A stretch of 64,000 bases of DNA from a virus (lineage: Duplodnaviria; Heunggongvirae; Uroviricota; Caudoviricetes): positions 3,224-67,223 of IMG/VR virus record IMGVR_UViG_3300044814_000107; one strand, written 5' to 3'. The notes under the pieces were generated by a model. The model had not been told where the DNA came from. It saw only the letters and a list, made by a program, of their open reading frames with translations, and did no database searches. The position numbers and the translations under genes are program-made. Position 1 is the first letter of the stretch. Each line of letters begins with the position of its first letter. This document shows, piece after piece, positions 29,311 to 56,286 of this stretch.

Positions 29311-29311
29311 G

Positions 29312-29323
29312 CGACGACCGTAG
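29312..29323 (-). promoter_or_regulatory. start-associated motif variant (CGACGACCGTAG), 2 nt 5' of the GTG of 28645..29310
   Basis: One mismatch from CTAC-N4-GTAG. Confidence 0.4.
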
Positions 29324-29342
29324 CGGATCGAGCAGACGGCGT

Positions 29343-29825
29343 CTACCAGCTACCGCGCGTATCGACGCTGGCCGACGGCCATTGCTCGTCGGTCAGCGCG
29401 GCGACGTAGAACCGTTCAGGCGCAAGTTCGGGATGCTGGTAGCCGAACTCGGGACGCTCGAAGAAGCCGGCAAGCGCCGGGTCGGCGAACAGCGCCGCGA
29501 AACTCAGCGTCCGGTGGCTCGTAATCTCCTCGTGCGCGCTCCGCAGCAGAGCCGTCGCGTACCCCTTCCCGCGATGGTCAGGGTCGGTGCAGACGTTCAT
29601 CACGGCTCCGACGCGGACGACCGTCGCCGCGACTCCGATGCCGGCGCCGGGCGCGCTCGACGCGCGGACGAGGACGCTGCGGTAGGCGATCCCGACGAGC
29701 GCCCGAACGTGAACGATCTGCGGGTTCTCGTCGTCGAACTCCTGCTGGACGAGGTACTTCTCCGGGCGAGGCAGGTCGTCGACGGGGCGGCCGAAGCAGA
29801 GCTCGAGGAGCTCGTCGCGATTCAC
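29343..29825 (-). CDS. GNAT family N-acetyltransferase
   Basis: GNAT motif A is present (VCTDPDHRGKGYATALL). Confidence 0.7.
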   Translation of the reverse strand: MNRDELLELCFGRPVDDLPRPEKYLVQQEFDDENPQIVHVRALVGIAYRSVLVRASSAPGAGIGVAATVVRVGAVMNVCTDPDHRGKGYATALLRSAHEEITSHRTLSFAALFADPALAGFFERPEFGYQHPELAPERFYVAALTDEQWPSASVDTRGSW

Positions 29826-29959
29826 GCTGCGAGCCTACCGAGGATCGCTCGGACGTCCCCGACTTTCAGGCCGAGCCGCTTCGCGATCATCCGCGGCGGC
29901 ATCCCGTTTCTCGTGAGGCTGAGAACGGCCTGCTCGCGTTTAGCCTGCGGCGATTTCAT
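29822..29959 (-). CDS. small HTH DNA-binding protein
   Basis: Track ORF 29822..30037, trimmed to MKSPQAKREQAVLSLTRNGMPPRMIAKRLGLKVGDVRAILGRL, which is a LuxR- or sigma-region-4-like helix-turn-helix. Confidence 0.45.
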   Translation of the reverse strand: MKSPQAKREQAVLSLTRNGMPPRMIAKRLGLKVGDVRAILGRLAA

Positions 29960-30327
29960 CCCGGCGCCGGCGCAGGGAACCGCTCGGCGGCGCGGAGCTT
30001 GATCGGCTTTGGCATCCGCAGTTTCACCTTCGCCCACTCGTGCTTACGGCGGGGTTCGTCGTCGTCTCCGGTGATCCAGTCGTCGATGCTCCAGACGAGG
30101 TAGGCGACGTTTACGACGATGCACGGGAGCGCGAGGTCGGCGATCGTGAGCAGGGGCGCAGACGTGAGCAGCGCGATCTGGGAGGCCCATACCCGGAGAT
30201 ACGTCCAGCGGAGTCGGCGCCCTAGAGGACGACTGACGTGACGGCCGCGACCGCGGCGGCGCGTGGGGCATCCGACGATGGTTCCGAGTATCGCGAGTTG
30301 GGTCGCGCCTGTGATGAGCCAGATCAT
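29956..30327 (-). CDS. membrane protein
   Basis: Three hydrophobic segments. The stop overlaps the downstream start. Confidence 0.4.
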   Translation of the reverse strand: MIWLITGATQLAILGTIVGCPTRRRGRGRHVSRPLGRRLRWTYLRVWASQIALLTSAPLLTIADLALPCIVVNVAYLVWSIDDWITGDDDEPRRKHEWAKVKLRMPKPIKLRAAERFPAPAPG

Positions 30328-30551
30328 CGCGGCGTGCGTCCCTTCTTCGCGTTACCCAGCATGGGGGTTCGCGGCGTCCGTCCGTGCGTCTTCTTCTGGT
30401 AGGCGCCGCAGCAGTACCAGCGGTCAGGGTTCGAGATCGACGGCCCCCGGCTCGTCTCGCAGCCGCAGGCGAGCGTCACCGTCGCTATCGGCTCCGCCGA
30501 CAGCCCGACGAGCTTCTGCTTCGCGTCCTTCGACCTCGGGAAGTACGTCAC
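30324..30551 (-). CDS. small Cys-rich protein
   Basis: Contains CGCETS...WYCCGAY. The gene is overlap-coupled to its neighbours. Confidence 0.3.
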   Translation of the reverse strand: MTYFPRSKDAKQKLVGLSAEPIATVTLACGCETSRGPSISNPDRWYCCGAYQKKTHGRTPRTPMLGNAKKGRTPR

Positions 30552-30717
30552 CGGAGCCGGACCGCCTCGATCTTCTCGAGGACGCCCTCGTCCTCCTCGT
30601 TGAAGTCGTGCGCGACGATCTCGTCGGGGATCGCTCGGAGTGCGGAGACGCTGCTAGCGACTTCCGCCCAGGAGACGAGGACGGTCAGTTCGTCGTCGGT
30701 GAGTAGGAGCATCCGCT

Positions 30718-31032: not shown

Positions 31033-31336
31033 CGACAGCGAGAGCGGCCGCTTCCTCGTCGTCCGAGTTGCCCTTCTCCCACACGGGCGAGATCCAGAGG
31101 GCGTACTCGATCAGGAGAGCGCGTTCCCGTTCCCGCGCTCGCTCGACCTCGGCGGTCCCGGCGCGCTCGCGATACTCGGTGATCGCGCGGTCGATGCCGT
31201 CGCCGAGCAGCGCCCCCGTCGTACCGACGTAGAAGACGCCGTCCTTCTGCCAGGCGAAGAGGTAGATCCCAGCGACGAGACCCAGCTCGTACGGCGAGAG
31301 CGGCTGGTGCTTCTCGATGGCCTCTTCGTATCTCAT
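30998..31336 (-). CDS. hypothetical protein
   Basis: The ATG lies 2 nt downstream of the CTACGGTCGTAGCG motif, and there is no separate Shine-Dalgarno sequence. Confidence 0.5.
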   Translation of the reverse strand: MRYEEAIEKHQPLSPYELGLVAGIYLFAWQKDGVFYVGTTGALLGDGIDRAITEYRERAGTAEVERARERERALLIEYALWISPVWEKGNSDDEEAAALAVDAFSRGDDRDG

Positions 31337-31338
31337 CG

Positions 31339-31350
31339 CTACGACCGTAG
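31339..31350 (-). promoter_or_regulatory. start-associated motif CTACGGTCGTAG(CG), 2 nt 5' of the ATG of 30998..31336
   Basis: Exact 12-mer. No separate Shine-Dalgarno sequence. Confidence 0.55.
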
Positions 31351-31533: not shown

Positions 31534-31537
31534 CGTC

Positions 31538-32443
31538 TTACTTCTTCGCCGCCGAGTCGCCGAGCGTCCCGAGGAACGCGGGACAAGAGGCGTTCGCGCA
31601 GTAGATGACCTCGGCCTTCGGGCTCAGATGCTCGAGCGCCCGGAGCTTGAGAACCTCGGGGAAGTTCTGCAGCGCGTGACCGACGAGCGAGATCGACGCC
31701 GCCTGACCCTCGGCGAACTGGATGGCCTGCTGCGCCTCGGCGTGCGCCTGCGCGACCTTCGCCTGCGCCTGCTGCGCCTTCTGGACCTGTACCTGCTTGG
31801 CGGTGATCGCGTTCTGATACGCCTGCGAGAAGCCGATGTTCTGGATGAAGAAGTCGGTCACCGTGATCGAGTACGGGGCGAGTTCCTGCTTCAGACGTGC
31901 GAGAGTGTCGCGGCGGAGCTGCTCCCGGTGGTTCGTGATGTCGATCGTGTGGTAGGTCGCGGTGACCTCCTTGAAGTCCTGCAGGACCCGCGAGTCGACG
32001 AGCTTCTGCTTCCAGCTCGGCCCGACGTTCTTGTAGAGGGTGAAGACGTGCTGCGGGTCGACCTCGTAGTTGATCGCCAGGTTCGCCGTGATCTCCTGCT
32101 GGTCGTTCGTGACCGCGGAGTTCTCGGCACCGAGGACGAAGTCCTCGCGCTGGATCTGTACCGACTCCTTGACGATCGACGTCCAGGGAGCCTTGGCGAT
32201 CAGACCGGGCTGGGTCTTTACGCCGGTCAGTTTCCCAGCGAAGTTGTAGACGAGGCCGACCTGCCCCGTCCCGAGCAACGCGAACGAGGAGGCGAGCGTA
32301 AGAACGACCTCGGCGAGGAGCGCGAGGATAACAGTGATTGCGCCACCAAAGCGGCCGTCGGTGCCCTTCGCGGCTGCGACGAAGACGAAGAGACCGATCG
32401 CTCCGATGACGACGAAGATGACGGTGAGTACGAGCCAGACCAT
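31538..32443 (-). CDS. SPFH/Band-7 (prohibitin/HflC-like) domain membrane protein
   Basis: An N-terminal transmembrane helix precedes an SPFH core (GQVGLVYNFAGKLTGVKTQPGL...PWTSIVKESVQIQ...) and an AQ-rich coiled coil. GAAGGAGGG precedes the ATG. Confidence 0.85.
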   Translation of the reverse strand: MVWLVLTVIFVVIGAIGLFVFVAAAKGTDGRFGGAITVILALLAEVVLTLASSFALLGTGQVGLVYNFAGKLTGVKTQPGLIAKAPWTSIVKESVQIQREDFVLGAENSAVTNDQQEITANLAINYEVDPQHVFTLYKNVGPSWKQKLVDSRVLQDFKEVTATYHTIDITNHREQLRRDTLARLKQELAPYSITVTDFFIQNIGFSQAYQNAITAKQVQVQKAQQAQAKVAQAHAEAQQAIQFAEGQAASISLVGHALQNFPEVLKLRALEHLSPKAEVIYCANASCPAFLGTLGDSAAKK

Positions 32444-32467
32444 TGACCCTCCTTCGGGGGATTAGGA

Positions 32468-32479
32468 CTACGACCGTAG
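32468..32479 (-). promoter_or_regulatory. CTACGGTCGTAG motif, 24 nt 5' of the SPFH gene start
   Basis: Exact 12-mer, followed by GAAGGAGGG and then the ATG. Confidence 0.5.
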
Positions 32480-32601
32480 TAGTTCGGTCGGACGGCGTTT
32501 AGGGGATGACACCGAGGCCGAGCTAGACTGCCCCGCATGATCCTCTGGATTCTCGTAGTGGCCGTGATCGTGGTGCTGCTCGTGCTCCTCGCCAAGCACC
32601 T

Positions 32602-35017: not shown

Positions 35018-35550
35018 ATCGCTTCGTAGAACTCGACGATCGCGGCGGCCGCGCGCTCGACGACCGGCCCGAAGGCGAGTCCGAACTTGCTTCTCGAGCT
35101 CGCGGAACGCCTGCGTCATCCGGATCATCGCGCGGCGCGCCTCGCCGCCGACCCGGCCGCGCTCGCCGCCGACCCGGCCGCGCTCGACCCCGACGCGCCA
35201 GATCAGGACGAACCAGAAGACGAGAACGCCGACGATGATCGCGAAGGTCAGCACGTCGCCTCCGAACGACGATCCCCTCGGACGTTGAAGTTCGGGTGCG
35301 AGCGCCGCCAGAGCGCCCGAGCCAGCTTCCGTCGAACCCCGCGCTCGGTAAGCGCTGTAACGCTCTGCACGAGACGCGGCTTCACGCCGTCGATCCACTC
35401 GTTACCCCACGGAGGAGGACAGTGGAAAATCTCGCCGACCCAGAGGAGCCAGCCCTTACGCCGATAGCGGCGCCGATACGTCCACTCGCGGCTCACGTCG
35501 CGTCCCAGCGCGCGCGGCGCTCGGCGAGTTTCTCGGCGATACGCTCGATC

Positions 35551-36027
35551 TCAGCGGCCTCGCCCCAGCAGAACGCGCCCGGGAGGAGGTCGTACGGGCC
35601 GCGAAGAAGATCCTCCAACGGAGGGTTCGGCACGACGGTCGGCGGGGCGAATGGGTCGAGCGCGAGAACCTCGGCGAGCGTTCCCCTGCCAGACGAAGAC
35701 GAGCCCGCCGAGGAACCCGGCCGGCCGCGCGACGACGCGGATCTGGCGCTCTTCGTCTGAGGCTCCGGTGTCGTCGAGTCCCATCGCCTGCTGCCCGTAC
35801 TCGAGCACTACGGCGTAGCAGAGAAGCCCATCCTTCACGGCCTTCAGGAAGTCGAGCGGGCCATCGGACGACGGGAAGCGGTGCGGCGTGTCGTCGTTCT
35901 GGCAGTTGAGCGGCAGGCCGGTCTCCTTGTCCGTGAACTGGACCTTGTCCGGCTCGTCGTTCCAGGGACCGGCGCCCCACTCGCTCTTGTCGACGGTCGT
36001 GTAGACGCGCTCGGCGGCGTTACCCAT
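35551..36027 (-). CDS. hypothetical protein
   Basis: Track ORF 35551..36069, trimmed to MGNAAERVYTTVDKSEWGAGPWNDEPDKVQF. The sequence is protein-like. The C-terminal extent is uncertain. Confidence 0.5.
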   Translation of the reverse strand: MGNAAERVYTTVDKSEWGAGPWNDEPDKVQFTDKETGLPLNCQNDDTPHRFPSSDGPLDFLKAVKDGLLCYAVVLEYGQQAMGLDDTGASDEERQIRVVARPAGFLGGLVFVWQGNARRGSRARPIRPADRRAEPSVGGSSSRPVRPPPGRVLLGRGR

Positions 36028-36379
36028 CGCGGAGTCTCTCGCCGAACGCCTGCCCCGCCGCCATCGCACTATCGGGCGTCACCTTGTCGGCTAGATCGGG
36101 ACCGCCGAAGATCGGGTGCGCTGTCTGGAACAAGCGCAGCAGCTCGACCATCGTGTCGTGGCCGTAGTAGCCGCAGAGGTCGCAGAGGTAGCCGACGTTC
36201 GCGTCGGCGTACTCGGTATGGGCGCGGTACGCCTCCATGAAGGCGTCGGCCGTCCGCTGCCGATCCTCAGGGTCGGGCAATTTCCGGATCGCGTCCATCG
36301 CGTTCGCGATGTCGCCGAAGGTGGCGAGCGTTTCTCCCTGCCACTCGAACTGTGCCATCGGTACCTCCGTCGTCGTCAT
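36020..36379 (-). CDS. hypothetical protein
   Basis: The ATG lies 3 nt downstream of the CTACGGTCGTAGCG motif. An internal alternative start MAQFEWQ is preceded by GGAGG. Confidence 0.55.
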   Translation of the reverse strand: MTTTEVPMAQFEWQGETLATFGDIANAMDAIRKLPDPEDRQRTADAFMEAYRAHTEYADANVGYLCDLCGYYGHDTMVELLRLFQTAHPIFGGPDLADKVTPDSAMAAGQAFGERLRDG

Positions 36380-36382
36380 TCG

Positions 36383-36394
36383 CTACGACCGTAG
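36383..36394 (-). promoter_or_regulatory. start-associated motif CTACGGTCGTAGCGA, immediately 5' of the ATG at 36379
   Basis: Exact 12-mer. Confidence 0.55.
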
Positions 36395-36411
36395 CCTACC
36401 GGACGGACGGA

Positions 36412-39089: not shown

Positions 39090-39250
39090 GAACGCTAGCA
39101 ACTCCTACGGACGTAGTTCAACTCAGAGCGGCGGCTTGTCTCGCGAGGAACGGAAGCGAGGACGTTGCGGCGAGGGGAACCTTTCCACTTTGGGTTTGTG
39201 GCGCCCGAAGAAGTGGCCTCCCTCGTGGGAGTCGCTGCCGCCGCTCTGAG
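39090..39250 (-). ncRNA. structured intergenic element with nested hairpins, candidate regulatory or non-coding RNA
   Basis: An outer 14-bp stem (ctcagagcggcggc paired with gccgccgctctgag) encloses inner stems (ccactt paired with aagtgg, and cgaggggaa paired with tccctcg). It has no coding potential. It lies between the peptidase gene and the upstream Zn-finger gene. Confidence 0.3.
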
Positions 39251-43168: not shown

Positions 43169-43169
43169 G

Positions 43170-43251: not shown

Positions 43252-43263
43252 AGGGAAGCGGCG

Positions 43264-44782: not shown

Positions 44783-45122
44783 GGCTCCTCCATAGCATCG
44801 GCCTCTGGCCCTCGATCTGGATGCGCTCGACCGCGCCGCGCTTCTCGAGCGCTCGGAGGCGAGGGTGGAGCTGGTAGCCGAGGGTCTTGATTCCCTCGTC
44901 CTTCGCCTCACCCAGCGCGAGCAGGCGAGCGCCGAGCGGCTCTTCTGTGCCGCGCGCGTCCGTTCCCCACTCGAAGTCGTATCCGTGCCGGTCGCTCCAA
45001 CGATCGAAGGCTCGCTGCCGGATGCGATCAGCGATCTCGTTGGCCGAGAGCGGCCCGTTCTCCAGCACGGCGAGGATCTCGCGGTCGTCCGCGCGAAGGG
45101 TCACCTGCGTACTGGTCGTCAC
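44775..45122 (-). CDS. putative winged-helix DNA-binding protein
   Basis: The product reads LRADDREILAVLENGPLSANEIADRIRQ. The GTG start overlaps the upstream stop (GTGA). Confidence 0.45.
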   Translation of the reverse strand: MTTSTQVTLRADDREILAVLENGPLSANEIADRIRQRAFDRWSDRHGYDFEWGTDARGTEEPLGARLLALGEAKDEGIKTLGYQLHPRLRALEKRGAVERIQIEGQRPMLWRSRV

Positions 45123-48002: not shown

Positions 48003-48490
48003 CCGCCGGCGGTCTGGCGGGCAGCCTCGCGCGCGTCCCTGCGCCGGCGCGCATCCGCGATCTCGTCGCAGCGACGCTCGAGCCGCTCAGCGATCGACTC
48101 GTCCTGAACGAGCTCGAGGTCGAGCGGGTCGCTGTCGTCGATCGGGACGAACTCCGCCGGCCTGCCCCAGCCGCGCTCGGCGAGGATCTTCGAGACCGCG
48201 AGCCGGTCACCGATCGAGACCGGCTCGTACGTCGTCTCCTTCTCGCCGGTCGGCTCGCCCTTCGCGTTCACGACGGTGCGCTGCGTTCGGAGCTCGCCGG
48301 AGAGGACAGCTCCCCAGAAGCCGACGAGGCTCTCGCCGTCGTCGCCGATGGTCTCGCGGACGCGGGATGCGAGGCCCTTCTTGCGGCCTCCGGGGTTGCC
48401 GGAGACGCCCTTCTCGAAGGGGCGGCCGACCGTCGCTGTTCTTGGGCTGTTCTCAGCGGGCGGTTCGGCTTGATCAAGCGGTTCGCGCAT
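47999..48490 (-). CDS. putative terminase small subunit
   Basis: It sits immediately upstream of TerL with an ATGA overlap. A GNPGGRKKG-type motif (FEKGVSGNPGGRKKG) is present. The CTAC-CCTC-GTAG motif lies 5 nt upstream of the ATG. Confidence 0.5.
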   Translation of the reverse strand: MREPLDQAEPPAENSPRTATVGRPFEKGVSGNPGGRKKGLASRVRETIGDDGESLVGFWGAVLSGELRTQRTVVNAKGEPTGEKETTYEPVSIGDRLAVSKILAERGWGRPAEFVPIDDSDPLDLELVQDESIAERLERRCDEIADARRRRDAREAARQTAGG

Positions 48491-48495
48491 TGGGA

Positions 48496-48507
48496 CTACG
48501 AGGGTAG
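48496..48507 (-). promoter_or_regulatory. CTAC-CCTC-GTAG variant, 5 nt 5' of the terminase small subunit ATG
   Basis: Same arms as the canonical motif, with a different 4-nt spacer. Confidence 0.4.
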
Positions 48508-48625
48508 CGCGCGAGGGGGTGAGCGGGCAAGTCCGCCGGCTTATCGGCGCTTCGACTTAGCGATCCCGATGATGCGGCCGTCACGGACGTAGAGGGTCAG
48601 TCGCCCAGCTACGTTCGTAGCACTT

Positions 48626-50221
48626 TCAGGCTACTCGGCGGCGTTTGTCGCGGGCGATAGCGGCGCTGATGAGGTCAGACGCCTCGCCCTTCGTCAGGCC
48701 GTCCGTGACCGGGATCCCGTGCTGGTGGAGGAACGCGACCTGCTTCCCGGACGGCGGCTTGGCCCTCCACGGAGCGGTCTTGTCGACGAGAGCCTTCACG
48801 CTGCTGTCCTGGTTACTGCGGAGGAACTCTTCGGCGACGCCCATCGCGTATCCGATGTCGAGTCCTTCGCCGAGGCTGACGTTGCGGCCACCCTTCTCGC
48901 GGCGTATCGCGTCCCATCGTTCGGCGGGTCGCGGGTGGAGGAAGATGTCGCCGAGGTCGCCGAGGTTGAGGAGCCAGCTTCCGTCCTCGAGGCGGAGCCA
49001 GTTGAGGTCCTTCCGCTCGAAGAGGTTCGCGACCTCCATGCCCGCGCCGCTGGCGGTCGGGTCCCAGAGGCCGGCGAGTTTCGCGGGGCCCTGCGCCAGG
49101 ATGCGAACGGCCCCTTCCTTTTCGCAGGATCCGGGCCGGAGGCCGAACATCTTCGGCAGCGACATGATGTCGAGGCGGTCGCTGTTTCCGACGAGGTCGA
49201 GGACGACGAGGTCGTCCTTGCCGGGGTGGAGGCGCGTGCCGCGGCCGACCATCTGGACGTAGAGCGGTCGGCTGCGCGTCGGGCGGGCGACGATGATGCA
49301 GCCGACGGATGGCTCGTCGTATCCCTCGGTTAGGACCATCGCGTTCGCGACGACGCGCGTCTCGCCTGATGCGAACCTGTCGAGGACGGCCCGACGGTCG
49401 GAGATGTCCATGAGTCCGTCGACGGCCTCGGCCGGGACTCCTGCGGCGCTGAACGTGGCCGCCATCTGGTGTGCGGCGACGACGGTCGGGGTGAAGATGA
49501 TCGCTTTGCGGCCGTCCGCGTGTTCGAGGTAGGAGTTCGCCGCGACTGAGTAGGCGTGCGTGGCGTTGAGCATCCCTTCGACGTCGCGGCCGACGAAGTC
49601 GCCTCGGCTGACGCGGAGCTTGCCCATGTCGTAGGCGAGCCGGACGGCGTAGGCGCGGACGTCGACGAGGTATCCAGCGGCGATCATTTCGCGGATGTCC
49701 TTGAAGTAGACGACACGCTCCCAGACGGCTCCGAGGCCGACCCTGTCTCCTCGCTCGAGGGTCGCGCTGACGCCAACGAGCAGCGAACCCGGCGCGCGGG
49801 CGTCGATGATCCGACGGTAGGTGGCGGCGACGGCGTGGTGGGCCTCGTCGATCACGGCCGTCGCGAACAGGTCGAAGGGGAACTCGTCGATTCTGCGCTG
49901 CCGGGAGAGCGACTGAACGCTGGCGATCACGACGTCGTGGTCGATGTCGTTGGTGCCCGCCTGGACGAATCCGATGTCGACCGCTGGGTTGATCTCCCGG
50001 TACTTGTCCGCCGCTTGGCGGAGTAGCTCGTCCCTGTGCGCGAGGATCAGCGTCCGGCCGAGGTGCTTCCGCTCCTCCGCGAGCTGCGAGAAGACGATCG
50101 TCTTGCCTGTCCCCGTCGGGAGTCCGACCGCTGGTGCCATGCAGCCATCGGCCGCGGCGGCGTGAATCGCATCTACGGCTTCTCGCTGGTACGGCCGAAG
50201 CCGGATCGTCGGAACGGTCAC
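48626..50221 (-). CDS. SF2 DEAD/DEAH-box helicase
   Basis: Motif I (LPTGTGKT), motif II (DEAHH), a SAT-like motif and motif VI (QMVGRGTR) are present. The GTG start lies 2 nt after the CTACGGTCGTAGCG motif. Confidence 0.8.
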   Translation of the reverse strand: MTVPTIRLRPYQREAVDAIHAAAADGCMAPAVGLPTGTGKTIVFSQLAEERKHLGRTLILAHRDELLRQAADKYREINPAVDIGFVQAGTNDIDHDVVIASVQSLSRQRRIDEFPFDLFATAVIDEAHHAVAATYRRIIDARAPGSLLVGVSATLERGDRVGLGAVWERVVYFKDIREMIAAGYLVDVRAYAVRLAYDMGKLRVSRGDFVGRDVEGMLNATHAYSVAANSYLEHADGRKAIIFTPTVVAAHQMAATFSAAGVPAEAVDGLMDISDRRAVLDRFASGETRVVANAMVLTEGYDEPSVGCIIVARPTRSRPLYVQMVGRGTRLHPGKDDLVVLDLVGNSDRLDIMSLPKMFGLRPGSCEKEGAVRILAQGPAKLAGLWDPTASGAGMEVANLFERKDLNWLRLEDGSWLLNLGDLGDIFLHPRPAERWDAIRREKGGRNVSLGEGLDIGYAMGVAEEFLRSNQDSSVKALVDKTAPWRAKPPSGKQVAFLHQHGIPVTDGLTKGEASDLISAAIARDKRRRVA

Positions 50222-50223
50222 CG

Positions 50224-50235
50224 CTACGACCGTAG
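50224..50235 (-). promoter_or_regulatory. start-associated motif CTACGGTCGTAGCG, immediately 5' of the helicase GTG
   Basis: Exact 12-mer. Confidence 0.55.
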
Positions 50236-50472
50236 CGCAGCGGTCGGACGGGATCTACGCAGCGCGGAGGAGTTCGAGCTCTTCGAGTTCGACAACGGAC
50301 TCGGGCAGCAGTCGCAGCGGCACCTTGAAGTCCTGCTCGACCTCGTGACGGATCATGGGAAGGTTCCGCCGGCGCGTCTCCGCGTCGATCCGTCTACGGA
50401 TCTCGTCGAGCTCCGGAACGGTGAGGGATCGCCTGTCGATGCGTGGAGTTGAGCAGATCCATCGGCCGGACG

Positions 50473-50841
50473 CTAGGCAACGCGCGCCGCGCGCCGCTCG
50501 AGCTGCTCGGCACGCTGACGGAGCCGACGCCGCTCGCACTCCCTCCGGCCCGAGGCGTAGACGTGCCGGTGACGGCAAGGCGGCAGGTCGCCGCGGAACG
50601 CGCGCATCAGCCGGGCGAGCATCTCGACCTGCGGGTGATGGTGGGCGCACGCGGTCACGCAGTTGTCCTCGTCGAGAGCGAGGTCGGGGCGCTGCTCGCG
50701 CGGGATCAGGTGATGGACGTGGAGGACGCCGCGGCAGTCCCCGCCGAGGAGACGGGCGACACTACAGCGGCCAGCGTCGCGCGCGAGAACGCGCTCGCGG
50801 ACGAGCTTCCACTCGGGTGAGGTGAGGAACGGGTCTGTCAC
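50473..50841 (-). CDS. HNH endonuclease
   Basis: HNH motifs are present: CRGVLHVHHLIPREQ and NCVTACAHHH. Confidence 0.75.
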   Translation of the reverse strand: MTDPFLTSPEWKLVRERVLARDAGRCSVARLLGGDCRGVLHVHHLIPREQRPDLALDEDNCVTACAHHHPQVEMLARLMRAFRGDLPPCRHRHVYASGRRECERRRLRQRAEQLERRAARVA

Positions 50842-50948: not shown

Positions 50949-51929
50949 TCAGAACGCGACGAGCGGCTCGAAGATCGGCAGCGACTCCTGGTTCGCCTCG
51001 TCCCCAGCAGCAGCGACGTTCTTCACGGCCTGCCGGTAGTAGCTCGGCTTCAACTCGACGCCGATCCCGAAGCGGCCGTTCTGGACGGCCGAGTAGACCT
51101 CCGACCCGACCCCCATGAATGGCGTCAAGACTCGCTCGCCGGGATTCGACCAGAGCACTACAGCCCGGTCGATCACGTCGAGTTGGAGCGGATGAACGTG
51201 CTTCTCGTCCTCGTCGTCGCGGGCCTCACGGAACGGGAGCACACGGTCGAGCCGCACGTCGTCCCAGAACGCGGATGCGTACTGTCGCCAGATCCAGTGC
51301 GAGTAGCGGTTCTCGGTCTGCTTGCCGTCGTAGCCGCGGTAGCGGAGCAGGTCCTCGGGGATAGATCGTTCGCCGGCGTAGTCCAGTAGGCCGTTCGGGT
51401 GTTCCACCGGGACGGGGTTTTCGCCGGCGCTGCGGAAGACGAGGAGGTAGTCGGCCGAGGCGACCGAGCAGCGCGTCGCGTCCTCGACGACTGTCCGGTG
51501 CGTGAGTCCCTTCACCATCGTCCGGTTGCGAACGGTGAGCGGCTCCTTCCAGACGTGGTAGCGGGCGACGTAGTCGAACCCGAGCTCGCGGTGGAGGCGG
51601 ATGATGTCGCCAGGGAAGTCCGTCAGGCCGTCGCCCTTGCCGGTGTTCCCGGTCGGCACGTCCATGCAGTGAACGCAGCTCATCCGACCCGGCATCGTCG
51701 CGCGACCGATCTCCTCAACAAAGAAGCGGTAGTGGTCGAAGAACTCGTCGTAGTCGCGGCTGTTCGAGAGATCCCGCTCGCTCGACGTGTACTGGTAGAG
51801 ACCCGCGAACGGCGGCGAGTAGATCGACAAATGGATCGACCCGTCAGGCAGAGACGGCATAACCTCCATCGCATCGCCGCAGTAGAGGGCGTATCGCTCG
51901 GTGAGCGTCTGGTCTACGACTTGAGCCAT
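50949..51929 (-). CDS. DNA methyltransferase (beta-class N6A/N4C; motif IV SPPF)
   Basis: Track ORF 50949..52367, trimmed to MAQVVDQTL. Motif IV (IYSPPFAG) precedes a C-terminal motif I (VLTPFMGVGSEVYSAVQNGRFGIGVEL), which is the permuted beta-class order. Confidence 0.75.
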   Translation of the reverse strand: MAQVVDQTLTERYALYCGDAMEVMPSLPDGSIHLSIYSPPFAGLYQYTSSERDLSNSRDYDEFFDHYRFFVEEIGRATMPGRMSCVHCMDVPTGNTGKGDGLTDFPGDIIRLHRELGFDYVARYHVWKEPLTVRNRTMVKGLTHRTVVEDATRCSVASADYLLVFRSAGENPVPVEHPNGLLDYAGERSIPEDLLRYRGYDGKQTENRYSHWIWRQYASAFWDDVRLDRVLPFREARDDEDEKHVHPLQLDVIDRAVVLWSNPGERVLTPFMGVGSEVYSAVQNGRFGIGVELKPSYYRQAVKNVAAAGDEANQESLPIFEPLVAF

Positions 51930-53317
51930 GCGGGTACCTCCATCGTGGTCTCGTAGGTTTGGGAGCGGGCGACATCGGTGGCGTCTCGCATGTGCGAGAC
52001 GAGAGCGTCGAACATCCGGTCGGCCTGCGCCGCCTTCCGCTCGAGGCTCCGTAGCGTCGACTCGCCGCCCGTCGTCGTGATGACATCGACGCGGACGGGG
52101 CGCGTCTGGCCGAACCGCCAGCTCCGGCGTACGGCTTGGTAGAACTGCTCGTAGGAGTGGTTCGGGAAGTACGTCATCCGGGCGCAGTGCTGCCAGTTCA
52201 AACCCCACGCTCCGATCGCGGGCTTTGTAACGAGAACGCGGATCTCGCCCCGCCCGAACGCGGCCAGCTTCTCCTCCTTCGCGTCGAGCGAATCGGCGCC
52301 CGAGACCTGGACTGCCCCGTCGATGAGCCGCGAGAGCAGGTCTCCCTCGTCGTTTAGCTGACACCACGCGACTCCGCTGTCGGCGCCTGCGAGCAGCTCG
52401 GCCGCGCGGTCGCAGCGCTCCTCGAGCGTCCGTCGCGCCTCCTCGCGCTCCTCGTTCAGACCTTGCGCCGGCAGATCGAAGAGTTGCCCCTCCCGCGGCC
52501 TGTTCGCGGCGATGATGTGGTCTACCTGCTCAAGTGGGGGAAGTACGAACTGGTCATCGGAGTAGCCGAGATCCGACGGCTTCCGCATCGACCGCGCCCA
52601 CGACGCGACCCAGCGCCAGAACGGGTCCTCAGCGTGGCCCTTGAAGCGCCAGTTCTCGCCGCCACGCGGACGCCACCGGCCACCCATCGACTGAGAGGTC
52701 TTCTCCTTGTTCGTGAAGAACCGAGAGAGCATGTCCATGTGGCCGAGATAGCCAAGCGCCTCGCTCGACGTACCGAGCTCGATGTAGTCGTTCGGCGCAG
52801 CCGTAGCGGTACAGAGAAGGCGGTAGGGAGTCTTGCGGACGAACTCAGTCACGGCCTGTCGGCGCACCCCGTCGAACGCCTTGATCGCGCTCGACTCATC
52901 GCAGACCACCGCTCCGAAGTCGCCCCGGTCGAATAGGTGAAGACGCTCGTAGTTCGCAACTGTGATTCCGGCTGCGATCTTCCCGTCGCGAGAGACAGCC
53001 GCCTCGATCCCGAACTTCTCTGCTTCCCCCTCGGTCTGGTATCCGACGGCGAGAGGCGTCAAAAGGAGAACGGGTTTCCCAGTCGCGCGGCGGGCGTTCT
53101 CTGCCCAGACGAGCTGCATCGGCGTCTTGCCGAGTCCGCAGTCAGCGAAGATCGCTGCTCGGCCCCGAGATACAGCCCACCTTACGAGGTCAGCCTGGAA
53201 GGGGTAGAGGAAGTCGGGCATCCACTCCGGGTCGAAGCCGCTCGCGGCGTCGAGTTGCGTCTTCCTCTCAAGGAAGTCGAGGTAGGTCGCGATCTCCTTC
53301 TGGGACGAGGACGCCAT
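51914..53317 (-). CDS. SF2 helicase-domain protein (possible partner of the methyltransferase)
   Basis: Motif I (ADCGLGKT), motif II (VCDESS), a TAT motif and a helicase-C motif (WRFGQTRPV) are present. The ATG lies 3 nt after the CTACGGTCGTAG motif. The 3' end overlaps the methyltransferase start. Confidence 0.7.
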   Translation of the reverse strand: MASSSQKEIATYLDFLERKTQLDAASGFDPEWMPDFLYPFQADLVRWAVSRGRAAIFADCGLGKTPMQLVWAENARRATGKPVLLLTPLAVGYQTEGEAEKFGIEAAVSRDGKIAAGITVANYERLHLFDRGDFGAVVCDESSAIKAFDGVRRQAVTEFVRKTPYRLLCTATAAPNDYIELGTSSEALGYLGHMDMLSRFFTNKEKTSQSMGGRWRPRGGENWRFKGHAEDPFWRWVASWARSMRKPSDLGYSDDQFVLPPLEQVDHIIAANRPREGQLFDLPAQGLNEEREEARRTLEERCDRAAELLAGADSGVAWCQLNDEGDLLSRLIDGAVQVSGADSLDAKEEKLAAFGRGEIRVLVTKPAIGAWGLNWQHCARMTYFPNHSYEQFYQAVRRSWRFGQTRPVRVDVITTTGGESTLRSLERKAAQADRMFDALVSHMRDATDVARSQTYETTMEVPAWLKS

Positions 53318-53320
53318 TAG

Positions 53321-53332
53321 CTACGACCGTAG
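53321..53332 (-). promoter_or_regulatory. start-associated motif CTACGGTCGTAGCTA, immediately 5' of the ATG at 53317
   Basis: Exact 12-mer. Confidence 0.55.
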
Positions 53333-53358
53333 CGTAAAGATCGGCCGGACAGGGGCCA

Positions 53359-53940
53359 CTACTCGCCCGTTCCTTCTACGTCTAGCTGGGGATGGCCCCT
53401 CAGTGCTTTCGCGCGGGATCTCCTACCCGCCCGCTTATCGGCTGTCGGGCTGAGTCCCATGAAGAACCCCGGCTGCACTCTCCACGCCTCCCATGCTCGG
53501 CCGACAGCGCCCGATCCAGGGAAGAGGTCATCAAGCAGATCGTCAGGTCGAGCGCCGAGCCACTCGAAGATCCAGCGCGAGAACGCTTCGGGCTTCTGCC
53601 CGATGACGTAGCTTTCGGGGATCGGACGCCACGTAAAGCCCTCGGTCTCGCAGTGGATCCAGTCGCGCAGATCCGCCGGCGGGCGGGCGCTTGAGACGAT
53701 CACCGGCTCCCAGCCGTAGCGGACGGTGTTCTTCACCCAGGCGAGAACACGTACTCCGGGCGGGCAGAGAGCGAGTATGTCTCTCAGCGCGGCAGCGCTG
53801 GTCGAGAGCGCCCAGCCGTCGTAGCCGACGAGCCGCTCGAGGAGCTCGACGTGGTCGACCTCGCCCGCGTAGTCCGGGTGGTCCGCGTACAGGTGGGCCT
53901 TCCCAGGGTACGGCGGATCGGCGTAGGCGAGTAGTAGTGG
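53359..53940 (-). CDS. MT-A70 family N6-adenine methyltransferase
   Basis: Track ORF 53359..54294, with the start placed downstream of the CTACGACCGTAG motif at the GTG of VPNEAPLLL. The catalytic motif is DPPY (LLLAYADPPYPG). Confidence 0.65.
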   Translation of the reverse strand, partial: PLLLAYADPPYPGKAHLYADHPDYAGEVDHVELLERLVGYDGWALSTSAAALRDILALCPPGVRVLAWVKNTVRYGWEPVIVSSARPPADLRDWIHCETEGFTWRPIPESYVIGQKPEAFSRWIFEWLGARPDDLLDDLFPGSGAVGRAWEAWRVQPGFFMGLSPTADKRAGRRSRAKALRGHPQLDVEGTGE

Positions 53941-53984
53941 CGCTTCGTTCGGCACGACAGGACGGTACTCGGCACCCCGGACAA

Positions 53985-53996
53985 CTACGGTCGTAG
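53985..53996 (-). promoter_or_regulatory. CTACGACCGTAG motif, about 40 nt 5' of the proposed MT-A70 gene start
   Basis: Exact 12-mer in the opposite centre orientation. Confidence 0.45.
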
Positions 53997-54038
53997 CGAA
54001 TAGTTCACGCAGGCAGTAGTCGCAGGTTTTCGTCTCGC

Positions 54039-55979
54039 TCAGAGAACCCCCGTCAGAGTCAGTCGGCCTAGCCACAACCCTACTTGCTCCGAGACCTGAA
54101 CCTGAACGGAGTTCCCGAGGATGCGGAGTTGAGCCGTCCGCGGGATGTCGACGTCGCTGACCCAGCCCGCGGGGAAGCCGAGCATCCACTCGACGAAGGC
54201 TGGGGCTAGTCGTCCCTGTTCGTCGGTAGGAGCGGGAGCTGGCCGTCCGAGGATTCGCTCCCATCGGTCGACGGCGGGTCCGTAGACGCCCCATTCGACG
54301 TTTCCTCGTTCACCGCGCTCGAGAGCGTCGGACCGCCCGTCCCGAACCTCTGCCCCTTGCTCCCCTTCTCCCCGTCGGAGCTCATCGGGGTCGGCAGCAG
54401 CTTCTTCGTCCTGCCCCGGTTCGGCCGGCCCATCGTGTCCGTCCCCGTCTCGTTTCTGCGGCTCTCGCCGTGCGTCAGCGCCGCCCGCAGTTCGCCTCCC
54501 GCGCCCGGGTTCTCCTCGTTCGCGACCGGCGTCGGCAACAGGGTCGGCTGCTCGCCCTCCTGCGTGAACGGCGTTTCGGAGATCGTCTCGCGCATCGAGA
54601 TCGCCGTCCCGAGCGGCAGAGTCGCCTTCTGGCCCGACGGTCGGCGTCCCGACTGCGACATCGCGCCCCTCTCCTGCCTGCCCCCGTCCCCGTCCGCAGC
54701 CTGCGGCGTCGGCAGCAGCCGCGGCGTCCTCGAGTCGCCTGTCTGGATCGCGTCCGTCAGGCTCACCCCCGAATGCGCCCTCGACCCCTCCAGATTCCGT
54801 GAGCCGCTCGCCTCCGAGTCCCCCGCCGTCGGCGTCGGAAGGAGTTTCCCGTCCACCTGCTGACGGCGAATCTCCGGTCCCAGTAGTCGACGGAACCCGT
54901 CCGGCCTCTCTCCGTCGCCGCCCGTCTGCGCCGTCGGGGTCGGTAGTAGTTTCCCCACGGCCGCGTCCGCCGCAATGAGGTTCAGCGGTGGCGAGTTCCT
55001 CTCCCGCTGCGACGGCCCCGCCGTGTTCTCGCCGTCCTGCGTCGTCGGCGTCGGCAGCAGCCGGTCTACCTCCCGAAGGCTCGGCCCCCCGTCCCTCGTC
55101 TCGCCGTCCGTCAGGCCCCGGCTGTCCGAGACGACCGGCGTCGGCAGCAGCCTTACCTCGGCCGCGATCGCGTCCGGCAGTTCGACCGATCGCTTCCCGC
55201 GCGTCCCCTCGTGCTCCCTCGACGCCGCCCGCTCCGGATCCGCCATCGAGTTCTCCGGCCTCCGACCCAGCCACGCGCCCGGCGTCGGCAGCAGATCCTC
55301 CTCGCCCTTCGGGAGGAGCGCCGGGACCGTCCTCGAGAGCGTCCGCTGCGTCATCCACTTCCGGCCCGGCAGCCACAGCCGGTGAAGCGGATCGTCCGGA
55401 TCCAGGTGCGTCCGGAACTCCTCGAGGAACTCCCCCGTCGGCGTCGACTCCTGCGCCGACGGGGTCGGCAGAAGGAAGTCGGGCGATGAGGAACCATCGG
55501 TCTCGGCCGTGAGGCGCTCCGACATCGGCAGCTCGCAGGCAGTCGTAGGCCCACCGATAGCCGAGCGCGGCCAGGTCGGCGCAGACCACTCCGAGAGCAG
55601 ATTCTCCTGCATCGAGGCGTAGGCCGGCCGCTGTTCGGATTCCGGGGACGTTCTCGAGGACGACGTAGCGGGGACGAAGCGCGCGAAGGGCGTCGGCGAC
55701 TCCGAACCAGACCTGGCCGTGGTCGCCCTCGATCCCGGCTCGGCGCCCGGCGAGGCTGTAGTCGGGGCAGGGGAACCCGGCGGCGAGGAGATCGACTCGC
55801 TCGACGGTGGACCAATCTCGAAAGAGGTCTCCATGATTCGGTACTCCAGGGTAGTGGGTTTCGAGGACGGTGGCCGCGGCCGGGTCGGGCTCCGCGAACC
55901 ACGCCCACTGGATGCCGAGCGCCTGCTCGAGGCCGAGGTCGAGACCACCGCCTCCCGAGCAGAGCGACCCGCCGATCAT
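54039..55979 (-). CDS. Dcm-like DNA cytosine-5 methyltransferase with an aberrant ~1-kb variable region
   Basis: Motif I (LCSGGGGLDLGL), motif IV (FPCPDYS), motif VI (ENVPG), motif VIII (HGRDRWFLIA), motif IX (FVEWMLGFP) and motif X (GNSVQVQ) are all in this frame. The intervening ~330 codons are low-complexity Gly/Arg/Asp/Ala-rich. In the +1 frame (track ORF 54206..55948) the same DNA encodes at least 10 LLPTP repeats. Confidence 0.55.
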   Translation of the reverse strand: MIGGSLCSGGGGLDLGLEQALGIQWAWFAEPDPAAATVLETHYPGVPNHGDLFRDWSTVERVDLLAAGFPCPDYSLAGRRAGIEGDHGQVWFGVADALRALRPRYVVLENVPGIRTAAGLRLDAGESALGVVCADLAALGYRWAYDCLRAADVGAPHGRDRWFLIARLPSADPVGAGVDADGGVPRGVPDAPGSGRSASPAVAAGPEVDDAADALEDGPGAPPEGRGGSAADAGRVAGSEAGELDGGSGAGGVEGARGDAREAIGRTAGRDRGRGKAAADAGRLGQPGPDGRRDEGRGAEPSGGRPAAADADDAGRREHGGAVAAGEELATAEPHCGGRGRGETTTDPDGADGRRRREAGRVPSTTGTGDSPSAGGRETPSDADGGGLGGERLTESGGVEGAFGGEPDGRDPDRRLEDAAAAADAAGCGRGRGQAGEGRDVAVGTPTVGPEGDSAARDGDLDARDDLRNAVHAGGRAADPVADAGRERGEPGRGRRTAGGADARREPQKRDGDGHDGPAEPGQDEEAAADPDELRRGEGEQGAEVRDGRSDALERGERGNVEWGVYGPAVDRWERILGRPAPAPTDEQGRLAPAFVEWMLGFPAGWVSDVDIPRTAQLRILGNSVQVQVSEQVGLWLGRLTLTGVL

Positions 55980-56220
55980 CGCGCGGAGAGAGGGATCTGG
56001 AACGGGGAGTCTGGCGGCGACGTGAACGCGGGTTCGCCGACGATCTCGGTTCGTTCCTCGTCGGAGAGCAGACGGGCGTCGAAGCAGACCTTGACCTCGT
56101 GGAGGACGCAGAGTTCGTGGGCGATCTTGCTCTTCTCGATCCCTGCGGCATCAGCTTCGGCCATCATCAAGCGGACGAGAGCCGTCTCCTCCTCCGTGTA
56201 TTCAGCGACTCGGCCGCTGT
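55976..56220 (-). CDS. hypothetical small protein
   Basis: This is the C-terminal ~80 codons of track ORF 55976..56557, from the GTG (VEIEFPKDSG) that lies about 25 nt downstream of the CTACGACCGTAG motif. Confidence 0.35.
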
Positions 56221-56274
56221 CCTTAGGGAACTCGATCTCCACGAAGGGGTGACCGTAGCCGCCTTCTCGGACGG

Positions 56275-56286
56275 CTACGGTCGTAG
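56275..56286 (-). promoter_or_regulatory. CTACGACCGTAG motif, about 25 nt 5' of the GTG of 55976..56220
   Basis: Exact 12-mer, with a half-site (gaccgtagcc) 15 nt away. Confidence 0.45.

Follow-up and report, generated by a model that had tools for sequence, protein, structure and literature searches.

The 64,000-nt stretch of phage DNA analyzed here (hereafter the window) carries repeated copies of a palindromic 12-mer, CTACGGTCGTAG, that abuts the start codons of five genes, and this placement raises the question of what the element does. The initial annotation offered two answers: a translation signal resembling the start-associated sequences of cluster K mycobacteriophages, or an operator for a dimeric regulator. 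We put forward a different reading, to which we assign a probability of roughly 0.65, whereby the 12-mer constitutes the -10 region of a family of phage promoters for leaderless mRNAs, reused about a dozen times, with the dyad as one part of the promoter. The phage that would use this repeated promoter is an uncultured, probably actinobacterial one.

The element occurs far above chance. The seven or more exact copies originally reported were borne out, with n = 7 against 0.01 expected (~700-fold enrichment; 0 of 100 shuffles reached 7), and the broader CTAC-N4-GTAG pattern occurs 10 times against 0.28 expected. The dyad can be written CTACG-GT-CGTAG and is symmetric at 10 of 12 positions. Five exact copies lie on the minus (coding) strand, at 31339, 32468, 36383, 50224 and 53321, and two more, at 53985 and 56275, have the opposite orientation; these reversed copies account for the centre-flipped form described earlier, which is merely the reverse complement and not a separate form. 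In RNA, reverse-oriented dyads would differ from forward ones only at the two asymmetric centre bases. Variant dyads previously listed at the TerS start and at 29312 were recovered, while those given at 48611 and 61548 map to 48609-48620 and, as an 11-mer, to 61554-61564; another variant, at 39105-39116, was absent from that list. Every copy is intergenic, the sole overlap being with the stop codon of a 64-aa ORF at 31339. All genes run in the same direction, and the description of the interval as non-structural is loose, since TerS and TerL lie inside it. The sites and their immediate context are as follows.

61554..61564, minus strand: 11-bp variant dyad CTACGACGTAG with a 1-nt centre, within a gap of 132 nt; neither a box nor a -10 unit recognized nearby
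56275..56286, minus strand: exact dyad, reversed (coding strand CTACGACCGTAG), directly upstream of the CGTCCG box 56268-56273, at the -35 place
56240..56273, minus strand: unit of CGTCCG 56268-56273, N10, TACGGT 56252-56257 (a -10 within the half dyad CTACGGTCACCC), 9 nt and GTG 56242 of an 88-aa gene
53985..53996, minus strand: exact dyad, reversed, directly upstream of the TGTCCG box 53978-53983
53953..53983, minus strand: unit of TGTCCG 53978-53983, N10, TACCGT 53962-53967, 6 nt and GTG 53955 of a gene for a 198-aa protein with a DPPY motif
53315..53351, minus strand: unit of a helicase-like gene, with dyad 53321-53332, TACGGT 53326-53331, 8 nt and ATG 53317, plus a degenerate box (read as CGGCCG at N10, or as GTCCG 53346-53350 at N9 from an overlapping TACGCT)
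50219..50250, minus strand: unit of an SF2 helicase gene, with CGTCCG 50245-50250, N10, dyad 50224-50235, TACGGT 50229-50234, 7 nt and GTG 50221
48609..48620, minus strand: variant dyad CTACGAACGTAG, reversed, 5 nt past the helicase stop codon; no coding-strand promoter-like unit attached
48488..48507, minus strand: TerS variant, with CTACCCTCGTAG 48496-48507, TACCCT 48501-48506, 10 nt and ATG 48490; lacks both the CGTCCG box and Shine-Dalgarno pairing (+0.5 kcal/mol)
39092..39116, minus strand: variant dyad CTACGTCCGTAG at 39105-39116, containing CGTCCG 39108-39113, then N10 and TAGCGT 39092-39097; in a 413-nt gap, with the next strong start at 38848, ~240 nt downstream
36377..36409, minus strand: unit of CGTCCG 36404-36409, N10, dyad 36383-36394, TACGGT 36388-36393, 8 nt and ATG 36379
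32441..32494, minus strand: unit with a leader, comprising CGTCCG 32489-32494, N10, dyad 32468-32479, 24 nt that include GAAGGAGG, the ribosome-binding site, and ATG 32443 of a gene for a Band_7 protein
31334..31350, minus strand: dyad 31339-31350 (its TAG ends the 64-aa ORF that lies upstream), TACGGT 31344-31349, 7 nt and ATG 31336, with no CGTCCG
29308..29338, minus strand: unit of a glycosyltransferase gene, with CGTCTG 29333-29338, N10, variant dyad CTACGGTCGTCG at 29312-29323, TACGGT 29317-29322, 6 nt and GTG 29310
15543..15564, minus strand: dyad-free unit of CGTCCG 15559-15564, N10 and TAGCCT 15543-15548, with the mature 5' end of tRNA-Thr (15455-15530) 12 nt downstream

The motif had been placed 2-3 nt from the start of five genes; it abuts the start codon in all five, over a range of 1-3 nt (1 nt at 29310, 2 nt at 31336 and 50221, 3 nt at 36379 and 53317). 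None of these genes has a Shine-Dalgarno sequence, and the 12-mer contains no Shine-Dalgarno-like stretch. Where a start is assigned to the remaining copies, said to lie 24-40 nt upstream, spacings are 24 nt (32443), 29 nt (53955) and 32 nt (56242). Independent public gene calls agree on the starts at 31336, 29310, 53317 and 56242. The SF2 helicase shares a conserved N-terminus with nine homologues; no start codon other than 50221 preserves it, and the public call at 50140 truncates it. Between 53955 and the public call at 54075, third-position GC favours the former as the start, with a value of 0.62 across the 120-nt extension and 0.78 downstream. The gene at 36020-36379 may instead be leadered, since a second in-frame ATG, at 36358, is preceded by GGAGG and has precisely the 24-nt distance to the motif seen at 32468; for the 36383 copy, leadered and leaderless starts are equally possible.

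The dyad belongs to a larger, bipartite arrangement that the initial annotation did not describe, consisting, on the coding strand, of CGTCCG, 10 nt, TACGGT (a TANNNT -10 hexamer of actinobacterial type), 6-9 nt and ATG or GTG. The pattern GTCCG-N10-TANNNT occurs seven times on the coding strand and never on the other (~0.5 expected per strand; shuffle mean 1.1 with both strands pooled). Six sites score at least 17/19 against CCGTCCG-N9-CTACGGT-CGTAG, all on the coding strand, and only variants with C at the fourth box position (T at one site) and with N10 spacing are enriched. Other high-GC phage loci, ~0.9 Mb, yield 2 hits in total. An extra copy outside the window, CCGTCCG-N9-CTACGTTCGTAG-CT-ATG, stands at a publicly called start. 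An alignment of 16 sites carries information only in CGTCCG and TA...T, and none in the -35 region. Distances from the -10 hexamer to the start, always ATG or GTG, are 6, 6, 7, 7, 8, 8 and 9 nt, and the anti-Shine-Dalgarno pairing predicted there reaches only -3 to -6.5 kcal/mol, which is weak compared with the -9 to -14 kcal/mol of many other genes. The start-abutting dyads are all (7/7) oriented to give TACGNT, and the two exact upstream, reversed dyads give TACGAC, an invalid -10. Two dyad sites, at 31339 and at TerS (48496), are without the box.

The same unit is conserved in distant metagenomic relatives, which share with this phage a helicase (65-70% identity) and Band_7, ParB-like and HNH genes. 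Their GTCCG-N10/11-TANNNT matches occur only on the coding strand and only between genes, and their CGTCCG-N10-TANNNT units sometimes lie 7-8 nt from called starts; in one relative, the called starts include an ATG and a GTG that follow TAGCCT and TATCGT, respectively, at a distance of 8 nt. Several of these units bear a different dyad over the -10, TATCG(C/T)GATA (TATCGYGATA), and others, like the unit at the tRNA, have no dyad and keep box, -10 and spacing.

We interpret this architecture as a promoter in which transcription would start ~7 nt past the hexamer, at or 1-2 nt before the start codon, so that units abutting ATG or GTG would produce leaderless mRNAs, which would explain the absence of Shine-Dalgarno sequences at these genes. 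From the 32468 unit, and possibly one more, the same promoter would be followed by a leader of ~17-24 nt with a normal ribosome-binding site, and one unit would drive a tRNA. The invariant CGTCCG box, at about -29 to -24 (~-26), appears to stand in for the absent -35 element, which suggests that an adaptor or activator acting at ~-26 would most likely be needed, in a recruitment architecture like those of PafBC sigma adaptation and of T4 MotA/AsiA middle promoters. Several observations count against this reading: a consensus scan found no canonical sigma-70-type promoter, terminators at the ends of upstream operons are no commoner than chance, the box is missing at 31339 and TerS and degenerate at 53321, and no promoter context was recognized for the dyads at 48609 and 61554. 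Nor was a gene for an activator, a sigma factor, an RNA polymerase or a clear repressor found in the window; of a total of at least 92 kb, inspection covered these 64 kb and ~12.6 kb of flanks.

The proposed translation signal, in which the motif would act in the mRNA to recruit ribosomes or a factor to the start codon as in cluster K, agrees with its position 1-3 nt before five starts without Shine-Dalgarno sequences, and a small 5-bp hairpin, albeit weak (-6.5 kcal/mol), can form. We nonetheless regard it as very improbable: the motif has no anti-Shine-Dalgarno complementarity, no larger consistent RNA fold was found around it, it also occurs 24-32 nt from starts, once before a gene with its own GAAGGAGG, and it is accompanied by a conserved upstream box at promoter spacing. 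A palindrome-free copy of box and -10 hexamer precedes the tRNA gene by 12 nt, and that unit therefore cannot be a translation signal. Cleavage of polycistronic transcripts at the hairpin by an endoribonuclease, releasing leaderless mRNAs, would suit the single gene direction, the lack of terminators above chance at the ends of upstream operons and the weak folding of the motif, yet there is little to recommend it given a DNA-strand-specific box 10 bp upstream and TANNNT, both promoter features, and given that in mycobacteria it is initiation of transcription, and not processing, that yields leaderless mRNAs (Shell et al. 2015, PMC4633059). We attach similarly little weight to the palindrome serving a phage-encoded RNA polymerase as a hairpin- or structure-dependent promoter, as in N4, or acting as another extruded DNA-structure signal. 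Near-identical copies are typical of phage RNA-polymerase promoters, four sites could form a G-CTAC/GTAG-C stem closed by a 4-nt loop, and inspection covered only the 64 kb and its flanks; against this, the inspected DNA revealed no RNA polymerase gene, palindrome-free units keep box, -10 and spacing, and TANNNT fits host SigA-type recognition.

The operator proposed initially is plausible for the dyad itself, although the -10 hexamer explains the start-codon placement better. As a complete account, with dyads binding a dimeric phage or host regulator and transcription starting elsewhere, on the model of phiC31 conserved inverted repeats, cluster O repeats or KorB/ParB-type operators, we consider it unlikely. 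Symmetry at 10 of 12 positions, the two orientations of the dyad and its three alternative placements relative to box and -10, the relatives' own dyad, and genes for a ParB/Noc-like protein and small helix-turn-helix proteins all argue for it, but it leaves unexplained the strand-specific CGTCCG-N10 box, the fixed 6-9 nt from TANNNT to ATG or GTG, the missing Shine-Dalgarno sequences, the perfect link between dyad orientation and position, and the dyad-free units at the tRNA and in relatives. Least probable of all is that products of the phage's own DNA-modification or nuclease genes modify or cut the palindrome, which would be intergenic by accident: the phage does encode at least three DNA methyltransferase-like proteins, a Mom-like protein and an HNH protein, but a recognition site would not keep to gene starts, one orientation and a box 10 bp upstream, and at 12 bp the element would be a long methyltransferase site.

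The promoter reading finds parallels in known systems. T4 middle promoters combine a MotA box at ~-30 with a sigma-70 -10, through sigma appropriation by AsiA and MotA. As proposed here, the -35 gives way to an activator box ~10-13 bp upstream of the -10, in many copies per genome; the box sequence differs, no MotA/AsiA homologues were detected in the window, and the present phage would have an actinobacterial host and leaderless transcripts. A further match is provided by the PafBC-dependent promoters of Actinobacteria (RecA-NDp, sigma adaptation), which have the consensus tGTCgg(N10)tA(N3)T and no -35, whose GTC triplet, recognized by PafB, is strictly conserved, and for which a parallel with T4 middle promoters has itself been drawn (Mueller et al. 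2021, PMC8635444). Both are bipartite, with a GTC-core element at -28 to -23, exactly 12 nt before TANNNT and in the same GTC register, and some host PafBC promoters also bear a palindromic repressor (LexA) box. The phage units differ in being phage-borne, present in about a dozen copies and fused to a dyad over the -10, and their dependence on PafBC is putative; the recruiting factor is probably not a standard PafBC, because CGTCCG has invariant C at positions 1 and 5, where the PafBC consensus has t and g.

In mycobacteria, an upstream -10 hexamer and a Shine-Dalgarno sequence are mutually exclusive and mark leaderless and leadered genes, respectively (Shell et al. 2015, PMC4633059), and leaderless transcripts are predicted for the cluster O promoters PL1 and PR2 (PMC4351075). 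Here too, as in the leaderless-mRNA promoters of mycobacteria and other Actinobacteria, a -10 would replace the Shine-Dalgarno before ATG or GTG, with a predicted +1 at the start codon, although in this phage the whole promoter, dyad included, and not just TANNNT, is near-identical across copies. The cluster K sequence GGGATAGGAGCCC lacks symmetry and includes a ribosome-binding site with GGAG; in its extended form, paired inverted repeats of 17 bp lie farther upstream (Pope et al. 2011, PMC3203893). It shares with the present motif a position immediately upstream of many starts and a predominant orientation, but the latter is a dyad, has no Shine-Dalgarno-like sequence and fits a -10 hexamer. 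The 17-bp cluster O palindrome TGTTCGG-N3-CCGAACA (Cresawn et al. 2015, PMC4351075) is likewise invariant, scattered over an actinophage genome and often near gene starts; its repeats number more than 30, about one third within genes, show no orientation preference and stand apart from predicted SigA promoters. The pairing of many copies of one operator with a near-identical phage promoter family recalls phiC31 and L5. The phiC31 conserved inverted repeats, which accompany conserved early promoters, and the L5 stoperators, which are asymmetric, belong to temperate phages with an identified repressor, whereas no repressor or lysogeny genes were seen here.

Within the promoter reading, the dyad would amount to the -10 hexamer plus its mirrored half, a symmetry not required by RNA polymerase, and in three promoters it would lie over the -35 or -26 position and not the -10. 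We infer that it is most likely an operator for a dimeric, phage-lineage-specific regulator that would occlude the promoter.

The window is part of a large, uncultured actinobacteriophage with a GC content of ~67 % and nearly all of its genes on the minus strand, transcribed in the direction 64000 to 1. Identical DNA is present in Logan assemblies of run SRR24887271, and one phage protein is also encoded on a 92-kb JGI contig. In the order of transcription, genes for ParB-like, Mom-like and SSB proteins are followed by many small genes, a methylase gene, a helicase-like gene with a further methylase gene, an HNH gene, an SF2 helicase gene, TerS, an intein-containing TerL, tRNAs and a Ro60 orthologue, ~24 kb of glycosyltransferase and other non-structural genes, and finally the portal, MuF-like protein, protease and capsid genes. 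The cultured-phage collection yielded no nucleotide match, and its best protein matches (helicase or capsid protein of Actinoplanes phiAsp2, Actinomycetia phage DSL-LC01 and Arthrobacter Atuin) are 37-39 % identical.

The repeated palindrome described in the initial annotation is real: CTACGGTCGTAG has seven exact copies in the window against 0.01 expected, and the looser pattern CTAC-N4-GTAG has 10 against 0.28, with all dyad copies located in short intergenic gaps. The element is the dyad CTACG-GT-CGTAG, and what had been called its centre-flipped form is therefore the reverse complement of CTACGGTCGTAG. Five exact copies and a variant at 29312 have the CTACGGTCGTAG orientation on the coding strand; in five of these six the gap to a start codon is 1-3 nt, and in the remaining one (32468) it is 24 nt, to a start with the ribosome-binding site GAAGGAGG. 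For the two exact copies in reverse orientation, the gap to a start is 29 and 32 nt. Of the abutting starts, those at 31336, 29310, 53317 and 56242 match public gene calls. For the SF2 helicase, an alignment with nine homologues identifies GTG 50221 as the sole start retaining the conserved N-terminus, and at 53955 the longer public call is disfavoured by third-position GC. Public gene callers misplace starts in this phage: that of the helicase is set at 50140, losing the conserved N-terminus, and further errors fall probably at 54075 and possibly at 36358.

When the sites are aligned on the coding strand, a further invariant element, C-CGTCCG, emerges at a constant 9 nt upstream of the dyad. 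Counted from the hexamer within the dyad, the full unit reads CGTCCG-N10-TACGGT-(CGTAG)-N1-3-ATG/GTG, in which TACGGT matches the actinobacterial -10 consensus TANNNT. The pattern GTCCG-N10-TANNNT occurs seven times on the coding strand of the window and never on the other strand (shuffled sequences give 1.1 for both strands summed), and it occurs twice in total in ~0.9 Mb of other high-GC phage contigs. Only C is enriched at the fourth box position (T at one site), and only the N10 spacing is enriched. The 6.7 kb to the left of the window contain no copy of the unit. Some individual units and variants are listed below.

Promoter-like units and variants, read on the coding strand
56242 (minus strand): CGTCCG-N10-TACGGT, then 9 nt and GTG
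53955 (minus strand): TGTCCG-N10-TACCGT, then 6 nt and GTG
39105: variant dyad with the CGTCCG box inside it, then N10 and TAGCGT
tRNA-Thr: dyad-less unit CGTCCG-N10-TAGCCT, 12 nt before the mature 5' end
5.3 kb past the right end of the window: CCGTCCG-N9-CTACGTTCGTAG-CT-ATG, the ATG being the publicly called start

The final T of the hexamer and the start codon, which is always ATG or GTG, are separated by 6-9 nt at 29310, 31336, 36379, 50221, 53317, 53955 and 56242, and by 7 nt at position 90 of L205, a metagenomic locus carrying DNA of the same phage beyond the right end of the window. Anti-Shine-Dalgarno duplex energies at unit starts are -3 to -6.5 kcal/mol, as opposed to -9 to -14 kcal/mol at many other genes of the window. 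The dyad overlaps the -10 at seven sites, the -35 position at two and the -26 box at one. All seven dyads over a -10 are oriented to give TACG(G/T)T, the reversed form (TACGAC) being found only away from the -10, and both reverse-oriented exact dyads lie directly upstream of a unit whose -10 region lacks a second dyad arm. Dyads 48609 and 61554 have no recognised promoter context, and the dyad-bearing promoters at 31339 and TerS have no CGTCCG box. Across 16 aligned sites from this phage and its relatives, information is found only in C-GTCCG and TA...T; every position upstream of the box carries ≤0.3 bit, and there is thus no conserved -35. A scan with the sigma-70 consensus found no promoters, and a terminator scan remained at about chance level. 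Four minus-strand starts (34125, 22331, 16827 and 15408) have TANNNT 6-9 nt upstream with neither a Shine-Dalgarno sequence nor a CGTCCG box, and tRNA-Met (21657) is preceded by TACCCT at a distance of 6 nt; all of these may represent ordinary promoters of the structural region, leaderless or host-type.

The contigs whose helicases are most similar to the SF2 helicase (62-70 % identity) also have Band_7, ParB-like, HNH and two more proteins in common with this phage. The CTACGGTCGTAG dyad is absent from these contigs. The GC content of the related metagenomic phages is ~72 %, and their GTCCG-N10/11-TANNNT sequences are on the coding strand only and intergenic only. One relative (L203) has two units with publicly called starts, ATG and GTG, 8 nt further on, another (L207) has one unit with an in-frame GTG 7 nt downstream, and L200, L202, L209, L210 and L211 have several units with a different dyad, TATCG(C/T)GATA, over the -10.

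Sites of the TATCG(C/T)GATA dyad in related metagenomic loci
L200: 1463-1500
L200: 7797-7830
L202: 1296
L209: 11536
L210: 7555
L211: 4421

At L200:21180, a 9-bp inverted repeat flanks the -10 on both sides. Since the relatives keep the box and the -10 but have another dyad, box and -10 are constant in the lineage and the dyad is lineage-specific, a combination that would be expected of a common polymerase-recruiting signal with a fast co-evolving operator. Searching IMG/VR and JGI metagenomes with TerS and TerL returned nothing, or one contig with TerL alone in common, and IMG/VR scans for GCTACGGTCGTAGC and GTCCG-N10-TACGGTCGTAG gave single matches only, those of the second scan in unrelated contigs. 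Eighty loci carrying the 467-aa helicase-like gene and its methylase have only this two-gene module in common, with the motif in 0/80, and k-mers over-represented in other loci were discarded as coding or tandem-repeat artefacts, none representing an analogous motif.

On the sequence evidence, the best-supported reading is a reused phage promoter that would yield leaderless mRNAs, combining an activator-type -26 box with an overlapping dyad operator. As in actinobacterial leaderless promoters, TANNNT stands 6-9 nt before ATG or GTG, and these starts have no Shine-Dalgarno sequence; in mycobacteria, leaderless mRNAs come from initiation and not from processing (Shell et al. 2015, PMC4633059). 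The initial annotation had suggested a translation signal, by analogy with the start-associated sequences of cluster K phages, or else an operator for a dimeric regulator. The former finds no support, as the unit also precedes tRNA-Thr and stands 24 nt before a start with its own ribosome-binding site (32468); both placements fit a promoter and not a translation signal. The operator proposal is plausible only as a second layer. Dyad symmetry overlaps core promoter elements, as it does in repressor operators such as the conserved inverted repeats of phiC31 and those of the LexA-box type, and five symmetric pairs are unlikely to fall in the promoter core by chance (~0.001); a dimer bound over the -10, the -35 position or the box would block initiation at each. 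Orientation is nevertheless tied to position, with reversed dyads only away from the -10, and this link is unexpected for a pure operator. Consistent RNA structure was rejected as an explanation, since only a 5-bp hairpin forms and larger folds vary from site to site, and no Rfam family overlaps the sites. A second common box, CGACTGAC, was likewise dismissed as not enriched (4 found against 6.3 expected).

Under the leaderless-promoter reading, the dyad would be bound by a regulator, for which the following proteins are weak candidates.

Weak candidates for the dyad-binding protein
62841-63482: ParB/Noc-like protein
29822-29959: 45-aa helix-turn-helix protein
44775-45122: 115-aa winged-helix-like protein
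Just outside the window: HerA-MarR fusion

Past the outermost promoter unit, the second gene (L205:506-2335, ~67-69 kb in window-equivalent coordinates) encodes a HerA/FtsK-like ATPase of 609 aa with a C-terminal MarR-type winged helix, possibly a DNA-binding regulator or a packaging or partition factor. The window proteins scanned with Pfam gave no match to a sigma factor, an RNA polymerase or a WYL, MotA or AsiA domain, and their helix-turn-helix matches were sub-threshold only.

In a promoter without a -35, a conserved box that lies 10 bp before a SigA-type -10 cannot make the usual contact with sigma region 4. A comparable -35-less geometry, with an activator box upstream of the -10, is found in the MotA-box middle promoters of phage T4, which resemble the phage units in architecture and are unrelated to them in sequence; the box is 10 bp from the -10 here versus ~11-13 bp in T4. 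Neither the Pfam-scanned window proteins nor the precomputed matches for other called genes include MotA or AsiA homologues, the DNA covered being the window and ~12.6 kb of flanks in a genome of at least 92 kb. The PafBC-dependent DNA-damage promoters of Actinobacteria have the consensus tGTCgg(N10)tA(N3)T, in which GTC is strictly conserved and read by PafB, while t at position 1 and gg at positions 5-6 are at most 50 % conserved, and PafBC sits between sigma region 4 and DNA in what has been named sigma adaptation (PMC8635444). A second WYL activator, SiwR, likewise works via the -26 region. The phage units resemble PafBC promoters in having no conserved -35 and in placing GTC 12 nt upstream of TANNNT at eight window sites and one in L205; we estimate the chance of GTC falling in the exact PafBC register at ~0.01-0.05. 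They differ in the remainder of the box, CGTCCG, which has C at position 1 in 15/16 sites and at position 5 in 15/16, so that only the final G agrees. Because the box deviates at two positions and the CGTCCG-N10-TANNNT pattern is confined to this phage lineage, we classify the unit as a -26-element-like promoter and not as a proven PafBC site. An apparent excess of the canonical GTCGG-N10-TANNNT in control phages (coding strand, 6 versus 1) was set aside, since it was partly due, at three of the six sites, to one conserved stretch of coding sequence. A LexA box is present as well in some host PafBC promoters, providing a precedent for an activator box and a palindromic repressor site together. 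It is conceivable, if rather unlikely, that the phage lineage took over the sigma-adaptation promoter layout of the host DNA-damage regulon (-26 GTC box, SigA -10, no -35), such that a WYL-type ssDNA-sensing activator would turn on a dozen operons in response to ssDNA from infection or replication and the lineage-specific -10 dyad would add phage-controlled repression. That activator could be host PafBC, a host-clade PafBC variant or a phage-encoded mimic.

Actinophages are well known to carry repeated regulatory motifs and leaderless promoters. The start-associated sequences of cluster K are asymmetric 13-bp GGGATAGGAGCCC-like elements that include the ribosome-binding site and lie directly upstream of starts in one orientation, whereas the present motif is a dyad without purine-rich Shine-Dalgarno content, so placed in six copies, with three at 24-32 nt and 2-3 reversed. 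The 17-bp palindromic repeats of cluster O consist of a 7-bp inverted repeat with a 3-bp spacer in >30 copies, many inside ORFs and with no orientation bias; the phage dyad differs in sequence and geometry, all of its copies are intergenic, and its orientation tracks position. The -35-less CGTCCG-N10-TANNNT architecture, conserved across the phage lineage, is a new variant.

The gene content of the window has several features of separate interest. The TerL gene (45396-48002, minus strand) is split by an intein, with LAGLIDADG_3, homing-endonuclease and Hint matches between the ATPase part and the Terminase_6C nuclease domain. The Ro60 orthologue encoded by the phage has TROVE and Ro60 vWA domains (40602-42668, minus strand, and 42228-43300), and the non-coding sequence upstream of it contains two extra tRNA-like T-arm motifs GGGTTCGACTCC (42559 and 43094), not called as tRNAs, and a sub-threshold match to the Rfam Y RNA-like family YrlA (42857-42915, E = 0.18), which suggests a phage Ro60 and Y RNA module adjoining two tRNA-Ser genes. 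The terminase and portal genes are separated by an insertion of ~24 kb of non-structural genes (21400-45400), which encode several glycosyltransferases, an acetyltransferase, a SAM methyltransferase-like protein, a nucleotide-sugar epimerase and a Band_7 protein, suggesting virion or cell-wall glycan modification. DNA-modification genes are unusually dense (53359-53955 on the minus strand, 50949-51929, 54206-55834 and 61878-62543) and comprise an N6/N4 methylase, a second methyltransferase, a Mom-family protein and a 198-aa protein with a DPPY motif at its beginning and no Pfam match. At 50443-50841, public annotation places a gene on the plus strand (ORF 50443-50820), although the ORF 50473-50841 on the minus strand encodes an HNH endonuclease kept in related contigs; a hairpin resembling a terminator (50902-50886) and a weak unit, TGTCCG-N10-CATCCT, lie upstream of it. 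Tandem repeats of 21 nt (5734-5830) occur within the N-terminal extension of the capsid gene, and a direct duplication of 21 nt (35144-35185) lies within a 531-nt gap separating called genes.

If true, the proposed promoter would account for the division of a large, one-directional actinophage genome into transcription units and for the many phage genes without ribosome-binding sites. It would provide a searchable signature (CGTCCG-N10-TANNNT, 6-9 nt, ATG/GTG) for annotating related metagenomic phages and a testable example of activator-dependent, -35-less phage transcription in Actinobacteria. Its candidate tie to the PafBC/WYL ssDNA-sensing pathway, together with a separable operator, would make it a useful regulated promoter part, and, should the sigma-adaptation reading be true, it would represent the first such phage promoter class and an actinobacterial counterpart of T4 sigma appropriation.
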